Program-made: the position numbers and the translations under genes | Notes under the pieces: model-generated | What the model saw: only the letters and a program-made list of their open reading frames with translations | Database searches by the model: none | Told to the model about the DNA's origin: nothing | Assembly: GCA_965368085.1 (NCBI GenBank) | Contig: CBDULP010000004.1 | Location: 25,401-89,400 of the forward strand | DNA from: an uncultured Peptoclostridium sp. | GTDB lineage: Bacteria > Bacillota > Clostridia > Peptostreptococcales > Peptostreptococcaceae | Direction of reading: 5' to 3' | Length of the DNA stretch: 64,000 bases | Shown: piece by piece, positions 46,500 through 52,461 of the stretch | Numbering within the stretch: position 1 is the first letter of the stretch | Layout: every line of letters begins with the position of its first letter

Positions 46500-47078
46500 A
46501 TGGGCGGATATGGTTCAGGATTTAGAGGAATACGAAAGCTTACGACAAGCGAATGTCTATGTCTGAACATTGCGCAGCTCTCAAAAGGATACTTGCAACC
46601 AGAATCAACTCTATCGGTCAAATGGGAAGGTGGGGCCAGCATAGATATTGAAGTACATGACACTTACCTGCAGCTTCAGTATGCACTTAAAGGCCAAGAG
46701 CATATATACCCTGTGAGACTCAATAGAATGGCCTGTAACTATGGCGGTTATCGTACATGGTTTATATGTCCATGCTGTGGTAAAAGAGCCTTGAAGCTCT
46801 ATCTGAAGGCTGGCAAATTCCTTTGTCGAAAGTGCCATAACCTCAACTACAAAAGCAGCCAGAAAAACCATGATGAGATAGCCCGTGTGGACTATAAGCT
46901 AACAACAAAAGCCTATAAACTGGGGATAAAGGGACTATGCACTTATGAGCTGCTCGCGGAGCTCCCGTTCATTCAAAAACCAAAGGGAATGCACTGGAGA
47001 ACATATGAACAAATTCAAGGGGAGCTTCTGTCATTGTTGAGCTCAAGAAATGATGCTCTTGTAGATATTTTGGAGTAG
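46500..47078 (+). CDS. Hypothetical zinc-ribbon protein
   Basis: MGGYGSGFRG ... NYGGYRTWFICPCCGKRALKLYLKAGKFLCRKCHNLNY is a CxxC...CxxC ribbon. This is a widespread uncharacterised type. It is the last gene before attR. Confidence 0.5.
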   Translation: MGGYGSGFRGIRKLTTSECLCLNIAQLSKGYLQPESTLSVKWEGGASIDIEVHDTYLQLQYALKGQEHIYPVRLNRMACNYGGYRTWFICPCCGKRALKLYLKAGKFLCRKCHNLNYKSSQKNHDEIARVDYKLTTKAYKLGIKGLCTYELLAELPFIQKPKGMHWRTYEQIQGELLSLLSSRNDALVDILE

Positions 47079-47295: not shown

Positions 47296-47340
47296 CTGGG
47301 GGTCAAGGGGTCGCAGGTTCAAGTCCTGTCACTCCGACCA
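47296..47340 (+). repeat. attR core: displaced original 3' 45 nt of tRNA-Pro
   Basis: Identical to 25171-25215. No tRNA 5' half precedes it, so it is not a second tRNA gene. Confidence 0.9.
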
Positions 47341-47587: not shown

Positions 47588-49816
47588 ATGGACTCCAAAT
47601 CAAAATACATAATTTCTTTAGACAAGGCCTTCGACCATCCTGTTCAAATGGTCGGAGGGAAAGTAAAAAATCTCTCCATATGCAAAAGAGAGGGCTTTAA
47701 TGTGCCCGAAGGCTTTTGCATAAGCACGCAGGGATATAAGTGGTTTTTGAATCACAATAATCTGTGTCATTTCATAGAAATGGAGATATTAAAAAAGCCG
47801 TTTGACGAAATGCGTTGGGAGGAGCTTTGGGACGCCGCGCTTAGGATACAGTCGGCTTTCACCAAGGCCGAAATACCCAAGAAGCTTGAAACCGATATAA
47901 TAAGCCAGCTGTCGAAATGGCCTGAAGAAACCGCATTTGCAATCCGCTCCTCTTCGCCGCTGGAGGACACAAAGGCGCATTCCTTTGCAGGCATACACGA
48001 GTCTTACATACATGTAAAAGGAACCCTCAATGTAATTGATAAAGTCAAGCTGGTGTGGGCCTCCCTTTGGAGCGACCGTTCACTGCTTTACAAGAAAGAG
48101 ATTTCACTCGATGTGCTAAAAAGCTCCATGGCTGTACTCATTCAGAAAATGGAATACAAGGACGTATCGGGACTTGCTTTTACCGCAAATCCCATATCAA
48201 ATGACACTACAATGATAATAGTCGAAGCCATAGAAGGGTCTTTGGACATGCTGGTAGACAACGTAAAGACGCCTGAACAAATTCGCATCAGCAAGATATC
48301 CGGAAATGCTCAGCTTGTTCAGTCTCCAATAGACGGAAGGCTTCTTAAAGATTCCGATATAGAATCGCTTAAGAAGCAGGTTGTTCATATCGAAAAACTG
48401 TTCAATGAACCCGTAGACATAGAATGGACAGGGCTTGGGGAAGAGTTCACAGTGCTGCAGGTTCGGCCAATCACTGGACTGGCTCAGGATTCCAATGAAG
48501 AACGGCAGTGGTATTTGACTTTGACTCCTAAAATGAAAAAATTGGTGAACCTAACCAAAAAGGTTGAGCGCGTACTGATTCCCCAGCTCATGCAAACATG
48601 TGAAAGATTTGCAGGGACATCCCCCGAGGGCCTCTCCAAAAAAGAGCTGGCCGAAGCTCTTAAAGACAGAGGCGAAAGCTACGATTACTGGAAAAAGGTC
48701 TATCAAAACGACTTCATTCCTTTTGCACACGGCATACGCCAGTTCGGGCTCTTTTACAATGAACTAATGCATCCCAAAGACCCATATGAGTTTATGCGTC
48801 TTCTGAAGGGAACCCCCCTTATGGCAGAAAGCCGAAACAGTGAAATGAGCATGCTTGCCAAGACTTTAAATCATATGACTTATTTGAAGCGAGTTCTGAA
48901 GAAAGCCGTCCGCTCTGGCATGAAAGGAGAGCGGCTTTTCGATGAACTTGTTAAAATCGGTCAAAAAGGGCCTGACGAGGAAGCTTTTGTAAGTGCATTT
49001 CTGAAGTTTTTGAAGAACAAAATGGATACACAATACCAAAATGTCAATCTTGACAGCGCCCCTGAAATCTCTCTGAATGTCATCATAAAACTGTCAGAAG
49101 TCACTGGAATTACAAAGCATGCGGACAATAAAGATATACAAAAATATATATCGCGATATTTCGAAAATGCTGGAAATGAAGGAAAAAAAGAAGCCGAGCA
49201 ATGGCTCCGGATAGGCAGGGTGAGCTGGCAGCTCCGTGACGACGACAACATTCTCCTGGGCAAGCTTGAAAACCAGCTGCTGGGCTTCATGCATGCAGCC
49301 ATTATCATGTTGAAAAAAGAAGGTCTTATAGAAGGCTCCTCCGCAGACTTTGCATTGGACGACTGGCTGCGTATATTTGAAGGCCTCAAAAACGAAAGAA
49401 AGGTTAATCCTAGTAAGAAGCGCTGTGCATCAAAAACCACCAGCGCATATATTGAAAGCCCCAGGCAGATTCAAATTATTGGACAACCATCTTCCCCCGG
49501 CATATATACAGGCATTGCCCGTGTGATCAACTCCATTAATGACTTTCAAAGCGTTAAAAACGGAGAGGTTCTTGTATTTGACGAAGTCCAGCCGCAGATG
49601 ACATTTATAATATCGCTGGCGGGTGCAATCGTTGAAAGAAGGGGCGGAATGCTGGTCCACAGCTCCATAATCGCAAGGGAGATGAACATACCCGCAGTCA
49701 ACGGCATACCGCATGCTACAAAGTGGATCAAAACGGGCGATATTGTCACCGTAAACGGAGACCTTGGAGTCGTGCTTCTAGGAAAGCCTGCCTTTGAAAA
49801 AGATTTGAAAATTTAG
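47588..49816 (+). CDS. PEP-utilising enzyme family protein (PPDK_N-type ATP-grasp N-terminus plus C-terminal phosphohistidine swivel domain)
   Basis: N-terminal VGGKVKNLSICKREGFNVPEGFCIS ... SSSPLEDT ... SFAGIHESY, and C-terminal GQPSSPGIYTGIARV ... GGMLVHSSIIAREMNIPAVNG (swivel His). Confidence 0.8.
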   Translation: MDSKSKYIISLDKAFDHPVQMVGGKVKNLSICKREGFNVPEGFCISTQGYKWFLNHNNLCHFIEMEILKKPFDEMRWEELWDAALRIQSAFTKAEIPKKLETDIISQLSKWPEETAFAIRSSSPLEDTKAHSFAGIHESYIHVKGTLNVIDKVKLVWASLWSDRSLLYKKEISLDVLKSSMAVLIQKMEYKDVSGLAFTANPISNDTTMIIVEAIEGSLDMLVDNVKTPEQIRISKISGNAQLVQSPIDGRLLKDSDIESLKKQVVHIEKLFNEPVDIEWTGLGEEFTVLQVRPITGLAQDSNEERQWYLTLTPKMKKLVNLTKKVERVLIPQLMQTCERFAGTSPEGLSKKELAEALKDRGESYDYWKKVYQNDFIPFAHGIRQFGLFYNELMHPKDPYEFMRLLKGTPLMAESRNSEMSMLAKTLNHMTYLKRVLKKAVRSGMKGERLFDELVKIGQKGPDEEAFVSAFLKFLKNKMDTQYQNVNLDSAPEISLNVIIKLSEVTGITKHADNKDIQKYISRYFENAGNEGKKEAEQWLRIGRVSWQLRDDDNILLGKLENQLLGFMHAAIIMLKKEGLIEGSSADFALDDWLRIFEGLKNERKVNPSKKRCASKTTSAYIESPRQIQIIGQPSSPGIYTGIARVINSINDFQSVKNGEVLVFDEVQPQMTFIISLAGAIVERRGGMLVHSSIIAREMNIPAVNGIPHATKWIKTGDIVTVNGDLGVVLLGKPAFEKDLKI

Positions 49817-49866
49817 CGCCATTTAAATTTTTTCCCATCCACACCTGTAATTCCAATGTATTTCAC

Positions 49867-49896
49867 GATATCCTAGTGTTTCACTAGGATATCTTT
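49867..49896 (+). terminator. Intrinsic terminator after the PEP-utilising enzyme gene
   Basis: Perfect 12-bp stem GATATCCTAGTG / CACTAGGATATC with loop TTT, followed by TTT. Confidence 0.6.
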
Positions 49897-49982
49897 CGAA
49901 AAAAGTATTGCTTTTTTTTACGTTATGAATTATCCTAAGTTTAACGACGAATATTGTCGAATAAAAGTGAGGAGGAAATGGT

Positions 49983-50090
49983 ATGGCTAGTTTAAATAAC
50001 TCATATGTAAATAAAATTAAAAATGCTGTTTCTAATTCATGCTGTTGCTGCTGTTGTTTTGTGATCCACAAAAAAATAGCAGTTACTTAG
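49983..50090 (+). CDS. 35-codon upstream ORF with six consecutive Cys codons (candidate cysteine-sensing leader peptide)
   Basis: GAGGAGGA (49969-49976) lies 6 nt before ATG 49983. Translation is MASLNNSYVNKIKNAVSNSCCCCCCFVIHKKIAVT-stop. The Cys codons TGC TGT TGC TGC TGT TGT occupy 50040-50057. The ORF is below the track's length cutoff. Confidence 0.6.
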   Translation: MASLNNSYVNKIKNAVSNSCCCCCCFVIHKKIAVT

Positions 50091-50143
50091 CGTGCAATTT
50101 ACACTTTTGTCAAAATGAATTTAAAAGGGCAAATGCCCTGTTT

Positions 50144-50185
50144 GAGGAGAAGGTAAACTTACACCTTCTCCTTTTTTGTGTTTTT
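50144..50185 (+). terminator. Intrinsic terminator between the Cys-rich uORF and the transporter operon (attenuator candidate)
   Basis: Stem GGAGAAGGT (50146-50154) / ACCTTCTCC (50163-50171), 8-nt loop, then TTTTTTGTGTTTTT. It lies about 55 nt upstream of the SBP gene RBS. Confidence 0.75.
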
Positions 50186-50255
50186 GAAAAACCCGGGACT
50201 CTAAAATACAAAAACATTCTAAAATATTAGTTTGAAAAATCAGGAGGAGAATATA

Positions 50256-51044
50256 ATGAAAAAAGGAATTATCGGACTATTGGTATTTACACTTATTGCA
50301 GGTGCTCTAATGTTTGCAGGAGGAAACTCCGGAGTAAGCGAGAATACAGATGATGTTGTAATAGTTGGGATGAGCGGAGGATACAAACCGTACACATTCA
50401 GTGATGAAAATGGCAATTTGACTGGATTTGAAGTCGATACGTGGAATGAAATAGGAAAGAGAATAGGAAAGGACATTGAATTTCAAACTGCCGAGTTCAG
50501 CGGCCTTTTCGGGCTGTTAGACTCCGGAAAAATAGACACTATATCCAATCAGATAACAGTAAATGAGAAAAGACTTGAAAAATACGACTTTTCGAACCCT
50601 TACGTATACTATGGAGCTCAACTTGTCGTGAGGTCTTCAGACTCCGAAACCACAGACCTCGAATCGCTCTACGGCAAAAAAGTTGGGGTAAGCCTTGGCT
50701 CTAACTACGAAGAAATGGTAAAAAGTTTTGACAGTGAAGAAAAAATCGAAGTCATAACATATGAAAGCTACCAGGCGTCACTCCAGGACGTATCTCTTGG
50801 AAGAATAGACGCCGTGCTTAACGACAAGCTTGCCGGAATGATTGCAATAGAAGAATCCGGCCTTGACCTTAAACTCGGCGGAGAGCCTGTAGAAATGATG
50901 TTTAACGCATTTCCTTTCAAAAAATCTGATGAAAACAAAGCCCTCATAGCTGAAATAAACGCAGCCATTGACGACATGTACGCCGATGGGACATTTAACG
51001 AAATTTCACTCAAATGGTTCCCTGTTGACATAACAAGAAAATAG
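50256..51044 (+). CDS. Polar amino-acid ABC transporter substrate-binding protein (family 3; cystine/cysteine-type suspected)
   Basis: Start at ATG 50256 after AGGAGGAG; the track starts at 50232. Signal sequence, then VVIVGMSGGYKPYTFSDENGNLTGFEVD ... GKIDTISNQITVNEKR ... GRIDAVLNDK is typical SBP_bac_3. Confidence 0.85.
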   Translation: MKKGIIGLLVFTLIAGALMFAGGNSGVSENTDDVVIVGMSGGYKPYTFSDENGNLTGFEVDTWNEIGKRIGKDIEFQTAEFSGLFGLLDSGKIDTISNQITVNEKRLEKYDFSNPYVYYGAQLVVRSSDSETTDLESLYGKKVGVSLGSNYEEMVKSFDSEEKIEVITYESYQASLQDVSLGRIDAVLNDKLAGMIAIEESGLDLKLGGEPVEMMFNAFPFKKSDENKALIAEINAAIDDMYADGTFNEISLKWFPVDITRK

Positions 51045-51052
51045 GAGGAATC

Positions 51053-51727
51053 ATGGCTGGATTTGATGTAAACTACTTTATGCGGGTATTCCCAATAATA
51101 ATCAGGGCTCTTCCCATTACAATTTCAATAAGCATTTTTGCAATGGCCATAGGGCTTGCCCTTGGAGTTGCAGTTACATTTTTAAGGCGTACTCAGTTTG
51201 ACATTCTAAACAAGGCGTTCGACGCATATGTTTCATTCTTCAGGGGAACACCGCTCATGGTGCAGCTGTTCATATTTTTCTTCGGCCTTCCCCAAATATT
51301 GCCTTTGCTCTCAAAGGTCAATGCTTACTACGCCGCAGTGATAGTGCTGTCCATAAACGCCAGCGCATATATCTCCGAAGTAGTCAAGGCAACTATAGAT
51401 GCGGTTGACAAGGGCCAGCTTGAGGCGGCCCTTTCAGTGGGAATGAGCAAGTTCCAGGCCATGGAAAGGGTTGTTCTTCCCCAGGCGTTCAAAATCGCAG
51501 TGCTTCCACTCGGAAACACATTCATAAGCCTTATACAGGGGACTGCCATCACATTCATGCTGGGCCTCAAGGACATAATGGGCATATCCAAAGTGAACGC
51601 TGCAGCCTCATACAGATTCCTCGAGTCGTTCCTGGCTGTTGGAATAATATACTGGATAATCACTTTGGTGGTCACACGCATAAATATTGCAATTGAAACC
51701 AAACTAAGCAAGGATGGTGCATTATAA
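51053..51727 (+). CDS. Amino-acid ABC transporter permease (HisMQ family)
   Basis: [18 protein letters not shown] and the EAA-type loop [23 protein letters not shown]. Confidence 0.9.
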
Positions 51728-52461
51728 TGCTTGAACTTATAAACGTCAAAAAGTCTTTCGGTAAAAACGAAGTGTTAAAAGGCATTGACCTTAAATTGGA
51801 AAAAGGCGAGATACTATCAATAATAGGCTCTTCAGGCTCCGGAAAATCTACGCTTTTAAGACTCGTGAACTTTTTGGAACAGGCCGATGGGGGCCGCATG
51901 GTAATCAACGGCTCTGAATACGACATGAAATCCGTAAGCGACAAGGACAAGAGAAGCATAAGAAAAACCGCCTCAATGGTATTTCAAAATTACAATCTAT
52001 TCAAGAACAAGACAGCGCTTGAAAACATAACAGAAGGGCTCATATTAAGCGGCACAGAAAAGAAATCTGCTGAAAAAACCGGGCTTGAACTGCTTGAGAA
52101 AATAGGGCTTTCGGACAAGGCCGGCAGCTATCCATCACAGCTTTCCGGCGGCCAGCAGCAAAGGGTCGGCATAGCAAGGGCAATGGCCCTAATGCCAGAC
52201 ATTATACTGTTTGACGAACCTACATCCGCCCTTGACCCCGAACTTGTAGGTGAAGTCCTCGATGTTATAAAGTCGCTTTCAAAAGAGGACATATCAATGA
52301 TAATAGTCACCCATGAAATGGAGTTTGCAAGGGAAATATCAGATAGGGTGATATTCATGGATGGTGGTGTTATCGCCGACGAAGGCTCTCCCGATTATAT
52401 ATTCGGCCAGTCTGATAATTTCAGGCTGAGATCGTTTATAAAAAGGTATGCCACGATCTGA
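51727..52461 (+). CDS. Amino-acid ABC transporter ATP-binding protein
   Basis: Walker [10 protein letters not shown], signature LSGGQQQRV, Walker [12 protein letters not shown]. Confidence 0.92.

Follow-up and report, generated by a model that had tools for sequence, protein, structure and literature searches.

The 64,000-nucleotide stretch of uncultured Peptoclostridium sp. DNA analysed here (contig CBDULP010000004.1, positions 25,401 to 89,400 of the forward strand; hereafter the window) contains, ahead of an operon for an ATP-binding cassette (ABC) transporter, a short leader open reading frame (ORF) with six consecutive cysteine codons followed by an intrinsic terminator. We interpret this element as a ribosome-mediated leader-peptide transcription attenuator that reads the cysteine supply through the charging of tRNA-Cys, a reading to which we assign a probability of about 0.8. 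A preliminary description of the same DNA had proposed a cysteine-sensing leader-peptide attenuator; its coordinates for the Shine-Dalgarno (SD) sequence, ORF, Cys run, stop codon, terminator and the operon for solute-binding protein (SBP), permease and ATPase are all confirmed, and comparative evidence strongly supports the idea itself, but the antiterminator pairing is too weak. The sensing parts of the element are established; the switch, an antiterminator helix, is a candidate only. The principal features are as follows.

49969-49976, plus strand: SD sequence of the leader ORF, GAGGAGGA; the ATG at 49983 begins 6 nt later.
49983-50090, plus strand: leader ORF, 35 codons and a TAG stop (50088-50090), with the product MASLNNSYVNKIKNAVSNSCCCCCCFVIHKKIAVT.
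50040-50057, plus strand: sensor, six Cys codons in a row (TGC TGT TGC TGC TGT TGT).
50034-50099, plus strand: hairpin P2 (helix 1:2), in which 50034-50063 pairs with 50067-50099 (about -21 kcal/mol).
50144-50185, plus strand: intrinsic terminator and U tract, with a pair probability of about 0.96 at equilibrium.
50242-50249, plus strand: SD sequence of the SBP gene, AGGAGGAG, ahead of the ATG at 50256.
50256-51044, plus strand: SBP gene, the first of the regulated operon, encoding a family-3 solute-binding protein (Pfam SBP_bac_3).
51053-51727, plus strand: ABC transporter permease gene.
51727-52461, plus strand: ABC transporter ATP-binding protein gene.

The Cys run in the window is not a product of chance. 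At 38.5% G+C, a first-order Markov model predicts ~1e-4 six-codon TGY runs per strand of the window, and no second run of four or more TGY codons occurs on either strand. The leader ORF product itself has no match in NCBIfam.

The same arrangement recurs in related bacteria. The alignment comprised 36 binding-protein homologues, the nearest named relatives coming from Acidaminobacter and Fusibacter, and 80 related loci were taken from reference genomes. By script, a short ORF with 3-5 consecutive Cys codons was found 137-412 nt upstream of the SBP gene in 13 of the 80, these belonging to Acidaminobacter, Fusibacter, Vallitaleaceae, Oceanirhabdus and several Clostridia metagenome-assembled genomes; the proteobacterial loci among those compared showed no Cys-run ORF. 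A metagenomic set (17 loci, and 6 contigs whose encoded proteins are the closest homologues, 80-97% identical) has the Cys-run ORF in all 19 loci with enough upstream DNA, the other four ending before the expected position. The preliminary description had suggested looking for a conserved Cys-run ORF before orthologous transporters in related Clostridia, and the layout of SD, Cys-run ORF, terminator and orthologous transporter is indeed repeated in several Clostridia lineages, at 30 non-redundant loci that form the comparison set for all counts out of 30 given below. In the 593 kb of related-locus DNA that was fetched, 30 of the 31 runs of at least four TGY codons on both strands sit at the leader position; the sole exception, on the minus strand of L033 (related loci are designated by L numbers), has no SD, start codon or terminator and was set aside.

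Since the 35-residue leader peptide is too short to serve as a protein query, a profile search was used instead, and among called proteins it returned only six ORFs, every one from a locus like these. Another three called small proteins also belong here: those in L104 and L105 lie directly upstream of an SBP_bac_3 gene, and the L106 contig stops just past the small ORF. Leader ORFs called as genes in public data include L011 2752-2874, L101 1228-1332, L104 1020-1157 and L105 128-265; the L011 copy is named 'hypothetical protein', the other called copies are nameless, and most copies are uncalled, so that genome annotation, with a handful of calls, mostly misses such ORFs.

The terminator and the promoters of the relatives place the leader and the transporter in one transcription unit. 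In the window the terminator stem pairs 50144-50154 with 50163-50173 (GAGGAGAAGGU/ACCUUCUCCUU), a G+C-rich helix of 11 bp (-16.4 kcal/mol) closed by an 8-nt loop, and the U tract UUUUUUGUGUUUUU starts at 50172. In 30/30 loci an intrinsic terminator with a U tract (-10 to -19.5 kcal/mol) separates the leader stop codon from the transporter gene. Promoters were scored as sigma-70-type sequences with at least 9 of 12 consensus positions no more than 130 nt upstream of the leader. By this measure 21/30 leaders are preceded by a promoter, several of them a perfect TTGACA-17-TATAAT, and the predicted -10 elements in relatives end at least 25 nt upstream of the leader ATG; in the spacer from terminator to gene a promoter of at least 9/12 appears in only 2/30 loci, and in four loci this spacer measures 22-29 nt. 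With promoters before the leader and not after the terminator, transcription of the transporter must therefore pass through the leader terminator, which rules out an independent small gene followed by a separately promoted transporter. As a separate observation, a terminator stem common to most of the leaders, RGAAGGU...ACCUUCY, is found in the window, L002, L005, L009, L013, L081-L083, L086, L090, L094, L097 and L101-L103; its 5' arm resembles an SD sequence and its 3' arm an anti-SD, and the 3' arm in the window is complementary to both the leader SD and the transporter SD.

Two features lie upstream of the leader SD in the window.

49908-49936, plus strand: candidate leader promoter, with -35 TTGCTT (49908-49913), a 17-nt spacer and -10 TATCCT (49931-49936).
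49945-49959, plus strand: small 5' hairpin CGACGA/UUGUCG in the minimum free energy (MFE) fold, lying at the transcript 5' end or close to it.

The first is the probable leader promoter, as judged by its resemblance to relatives and its position, which matches that of the strong TTGACA-17-TATAAT-like promoters before 21/30 related leaders; its -35 sequence is also present in L103 and its -10 sequence in the L013 group. The 5' hairpin resembled the Rfam Clostridium-PBP RNA with E = 3.9, far under gathering, which was taken as chance. Further upstream, after a phosphoenolpyruvate (PEP)-synthase-like gene (47588-49816), a perfect inverted repeat GATATCCTAGTG ... CACTAGGATATC at 49866-49895 on the plus strand is probably the terminator of that gene, separating it from the leader transcription unit.

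The leader RNA is well folded (z = -5.8), and the Cys run is embedded in the conserved hairpin P2, in which the two preceding codons and the run make up the 5' strand and the last part of the ORF, with its stop codon, the 3' strand. The hand-folded pairing of 50048-50055 with 50075-50082 in the preliminary description is real and forms part of this longer hairpin. P2 is more stable than dinucleotide shuffles at p<0.05 in 20/30 leaders (median p 0.02), RNAalifold finds it de novo in a ten-sequence subfamily alignment, and 94.7% of its cells are paired, compared with 29-63% when the partners are slid. Since the Cys codons fix one strand, P2 can show little covariation; a compensatory C-G to U-A change is nevertheless seen between the window and L101, where the fourth Cys codon goes from TGC to TGT and its partner from G to A. 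Also predicted in this region is an 11-bp helix, P1, in which 49974-49984 pairs with 50023-50033, covering the 3' part of the leader SD region and the AUG. According to this fold, P1 may hide the leader initiation site as soon as the ORF has been transcribed over its first 50 nt and these have been vacated, restricting translation to few rounds.

Three further segments enter into the proposed switch.

49961-49969, plus strand: segment A, AUAAAAGUG, the 5' strand of helix P0, which pairs with 50102-50110; a candidate anti-antiterminator.
50097-50112, plus strand: segment B, AUUUACACUUUUGUCA, the candidate antiterminator 5' strand, beginning 7 nt past the stop codon.
50126-50139, plus strand: hairpin P3, AGGGC/GCCCU, just before the terminator and inside the candidate antiterminator.

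Segment B has two alternative pairings, in P0 and in the candidate antiterminator, which together amount to a formal four-segment design. With segment A, just upstream of the leader SD, it can form the 9-bp helix P0 (-8.7 kcal/mol), and with the 5' arm and loop of the terminator (50144-50162) a pairing of -8.4 kcal/mol. The latter is seen in folds of the nascent transcript, before the terminator 3' arm exists, and is lost from the fold once a ribosome occupies the stop codon. Matching changes in the two strands of P0 were noted by eye in relatives (AAAGUAAA:UUUACUUU, AAAGUAAU:AUUACUUU and AAAGAAG:CUUCUUU). P3 undergoes a compensatory change in L101 (GGGC/GCCC to GAGC/GCUC), and most relatives have an equivalent hairpin. 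The antiterminator originally proposed, 50081-50088 with 50151-50159, comes to just -2.9 kcal/mol, and none of the predicted folds contains it.

We infer from this architecture that the leader ORF is translated and that ribosomes stall on it in a cysteine-dependent manner, and the steps leading from the stall to read-through can be modelled on established trp and his attenuation and on the response to cysteine demonstrated experimentally for mycobacterial polycysteine short ORFs (sORFs). Transcription would start ~40 nt upstream of the leader ATG, and a ribosome would load at the strong SD and translate the 35-codon leader. When Cys-tRNA is ample, the ribosome would pass the six Cys codons and reach the stop codon at 50088-50090, transiently covering the start of segment B; upon its release P2 and perhaps P0 would refold and the terminator would form (50144-50173), so that transcription would end near 50177-50181, ahead of the transporter genes. 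When Cys-tRNA is scarce, a ribosome stalled on 50040-50057 would keep P2 open, leaving the RNA just past the stop codon free to pair with the 5' arm of the terminator as it emerges. With the 5' arm occupied, RNA polymerase would read through into the SBP/permease/ATPase operon.

Several results weigh against this interpretation. Firstly, the candidate leader promoter of the window is weak, at 7/12 consensus positions, and falls below the threshold of the promoter scan. Secondly, the leader is missing from ~20 Clostridia-type loci with a related SBP, where neither a weaker Cys-bearing sORF nor, as a substitute, a T-box or SAM (S-adenosylmethionine) riboswitch was found; the element is therefore lineage-restricted. 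The loci without the leader (SBP identity 44-64%) are L006, L008, L010, L014, L016-L018, L020-L023, L025, L027, L031, L033 and others; in L033 the SBP gene is the third in its operon.

Thirdly, all three transporter proteins score under the NCBIfam equivalog cut-offs for cystine transport (TcyJ/TcyL/TcyN). The best match of the SBP is the cystine SBP PRK11260 (200.5 bits, cut-off 312; second, a Lys/Arg/Orn family at 161.5), that of the permease is the cystine permease PRK15100 (168.1 bits, cut-off 300; second, EhuD at 128.5), and that of the ATPase is TcyN PRK11264 (283.5 bits, cut-off 406), with GlnQ nearly tied. The closest solved structure, 9d5w, carries only a generic name, and no paper was found for it; the PDB neighbours say nothing on the substrate. 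Since none of the three scores reaches its equivalog cut-off, a substrate can be no more than a best guess: judged by these matches, the transporter probably carries cystine or a sulfur amino acid related to it. The cystine/cysteine importer of the preliminary description accordingly agrees with the best matches, TcyJ/L/N, but its specificity and its response to cysteine are ones that we still infer.

Finally, the switch does not stand out from its background in the folding calculations. Across the 30 leaders, neither P0 nor the best pairing of the post-run RNA with the terminator 5' arm outdoes its counterpart in shuffled sequences (for the latter, dinucleotide shuffles with p mostly 0.2-0.9), shuffle tests for the antiterminator and P0 having little power in leaders so rich in A+U. 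Nor does the upstream RNA pair better with the real 5' arm than with shuffled arms, as measured by the gain in intramolecular energy (median p 0.35). In folding with ribosome masks, a check that the preliminary description had advised, the terminator has a probability of ~0.96 at equilibrium under every ribosome placement. As the terminator is dominant at equilibrium in all states, the switch would have to be kinetic.

These folding results are what an alternative with a different output would draw on, namely that the Cys-run ORF does sense cysteine, that the response is translational or lies in RNA stability, and that the terminator is a constitutive partial stop. The missing antiterminator signal and the dominance of the terminator in every equilibrium state would be expected, the anti-SD-like 3' arm ACCUUCUCCUU is complementary to the transporter SD, and the mycobacterial precedent is translational (bioRxiv 10.1101/834739). 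However, a strong terminator in 30/30 loci together with an upstream promoter is what characterises transcription attenuation, the partner of the Cys tract is the 3' end of its own ORF and not a downstream SD, and the downstream SD of the window lies at least 70 nt from the terminator and is unpaired in the MFE structure. We regard this alternative as improbable, albeit the strongest of those considered.

The folding of the leader (z = -5.8) and the conservation of P2 with compensatory changes, in the face of an unconserved peptide sequence, could also be accommodated by a structured non-coding RNA (a riboswitch, a protein-binding leader or a small RNA with its own terminator) in which the UGY repeats are structural and the ORF incidental. 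Against this reading, an SD-like sequence and an ATG in frame with the Cys run are present in 30/30 leaders, whereas neither of the other two frames (Leu, CUG/UUG; Ala) has an SD-preceded start in any of the 30. Although the leaders have diverged widely, no lineage has lost the open frame, which spans 21-52 codons, and the run varies only by synonymous TGC/TGT swaps, seen between close relatives, or in length by whole codons (3 to 6). The preliminary description had seen no T-box or S-box at the locus, and the Rfam search likewise returned no family, T-box (RF00230) and SAM/S-box (RF00162) included, over 49700-50400 at E values up to 10; across the whole window there was no T-box or SAM/S-box match at the gathering threshold. 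A non-coding RNA is accordingly very improbable, more so than a translational output.

Slightly less probable still is a functional Cys-rich micropeptide, for example metal-binding or redox-active, encoded by a small gene with its own terminator. The strong SD, the terminator and the few copies called as hypothetical proteins in public data would suit such a gene, but the leader peptides range from 21 to 52 residues and have only Met1 and the Cys run in common. Between the window and L101, whose binding proteins are 85% identical, a one-base indel directly after the Cys run (window 50058-50090, L101 1303-1332) rewrites the C-terminus from FVIHKKIAVT to FCDEQKNNS and moves the stop position, while the nucleotide sequence and so the hairpin are kept. 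Variable peptides and a frame-shifted tail with kept RNA therefore indicate selection on the Cys codons and the RNA and not on the peptide product. In addition, no transporter promoter follows the terminator, some loci leave no room for one, and every such ORF accompanies the same transporter. A chance ORF, a (TGC/TGT)n simple repeat or a leucine-sensing leader in the CUG/UUG frame is effectively refuted, for although slippage can create trinucleotide repeats, a one-base shift turns the run of the window into five Leu codons and an ATG there overlaps the first Cys codon (ORF 50039-50230), the expectation is ~1e-4, conservation is position-specific in 30 loci, and the Leu frame has an SD in no locus, is without the overlapping ATG as well in at least eight leaders and in six meets a stop codon just where the run ends.

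Beyond the attenuator reading itself, a larger claim can be put forward tentatively, and we consider it rather doubtful: that these leaders are the first terminator-type polycysteine attenuator family, with an unusual P0 switch, or belong to a wider clostridial Cys 'ribulon'. Segment A, upstream of the SD, may act as an anti-antiterminator that closes a three-way junction of P0, P1 and P2 around the whole ORF; a stalled ribosome may collapse this junction, freeing the post-stop segment to block the terminator. The leaders may take the place of Cys T-boxes or CymR in several Clostridia lineages, and Cys-run leaders before other sulfur genes in the same genomes may form the clostridial counterpart of the mycobacterial Cys 'ribulon'.

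Elsewhere in the window, the only Rfam matches are a tRNA-Pro and a cyclic di-GMP (c-di-GMP)-I riboswitch. The latter (RF01051, 53619-53708, minus strand; 79.8 bits, above gathering) immediately precedes a gene for a secreted leucine-rich-repeat protein (53552-52560, minus strand; Pfam LRR_4/LRR_8). A fragment resembling the 3' half of a tRNA, GGGGTCGCAGGTTCAAGTCCTGTCACTCCGACCA (47296-47340, plus strand), uncalled by ARAGORN and Rfam, comes after a CxxC-rich ORF of 192 residues with no Pfam match (46500-47078, plus strand) and may be the attachment-site remnant of an integrated element.

The classical leader-peptide attenuators are those of the trp, his, leu, thr, pheA and ilv operons of Enterobacteria. 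Like them, the element in the window has a short ORF with its own SD in the 5' leader, consecutive cognate codons in the 5' strand of a 1:2 hairpin, an intrinsic terminator ahead of the structural genes and a promoter upstream of the leader, and the logic would be the same, scarcity of the charged tRNA causing a stall and thence read-through. Every structural feature of the classical attenuators is thus present except a demonstrable antiterminator, which here is only a candidate. In contrast to them, the element would sense cysteine, its hosts are a lineage of anaerobic Clostridia, it would regulate an uptake ABC transporter and not a biosynthetic operon or a tRNA synthetase, and it possibly has an extra helix, P0, between a pre-SD and a post-stop segment. 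In Clostridia, control by cysteine is usually expected to act through T-box, S-box or CymR, and to our knowledge amino-acid-sensing leader peptides have rarely been reported in Firmicutes. Precedents are the His leader peptide of hisS/hisZ in Bacilli (PMC2965389) and the Leu-rich ilv attenuator peptide of S. aureus, which concerns branched-chain amino acids (PMC5794164).

Polycysteine sORFs answer cysteine limitation in mycobacteria (Canestrari et al., bioRxiv 10.1101/834739); those of M. smegmatis open leaderless mRNAs and attenuate translation, their Cys tract being paired with the SD that serves the following gene (bioRxiv 10.1101/834739), and Cys leaders without terminators had been predicted in Actinobacteria in 2005 (PMC1262725). 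The window element shares with the mycobacterial sORFs consecutive Cys codons in a short upstream ORF that would serve as a sensor of cysteine supply, a probable connection with sulfur- or cysteine-related genes and a stably paired Cys tract whose duplex would be opened by ribosome stalling. It differs in having a 5' untranslated region and a strong SD, in pairing its Cys tract with the 3' end of the ORF where the mycobacterial tract pairs with the next SD, and in its terminator, present in 30/30 loci and lacking in mycobacteria. Both of the defining features of the mycobacterial class that were tested, a leaderless mRNA and a Cys tract:SD pairing without a terminator, are absent from it.

The uORFC-8-2 motif of the Breaker laboratory, found upstream of the cysteinyl-tRNA synthetase gene cysS in Rhodobacterales, has two tandem Cys codons in the first of two stems, the second being followed by a U run as in a terminator, and ribosome stalling at the Cys codons has been proposed (PMC8632094). 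By that description it resembles the present element in its tandem Cys codons in the first stem, a terminator as the second and the stalling logic, and differs from it in having two Cys codons, an alpha-proteobacterial host and cysS as its gene, where here there are 3-6 Cys codons, Clostridia and a transporter. With Cys T-box and S-box leaders the element has in common the position in the 5' leader and the intrinsic terminator, and with the T-box also the signal, tRNA-Cys charging. Unlike in the T-box, the tRNA would be read indirectly through the translating ribosome and not by direct RNA-tRNA contact, and no T-box or SAM structure is present.

A literature search found no Cys leader for Clostridia or Firmicutes or before a cystine transporter, its coverage being incomplete and absence therefore unproven. 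What the loci present is a complete, classical-looking Cys attenuator, repeated in at least 30 anaerobic Clostridia loci, which would control uptake rather than biosynthesis; it offers a compact, testable cysteine-responsive switch and hints at the substrate of poorly annotated family-3 ABC transporters. Since Cys leaders were already known in Actinobacteria (translational and leaderless) and before cysS in Rhodobacterales (two codons), it is the setting that is new, and the mechanism would be the classical one.

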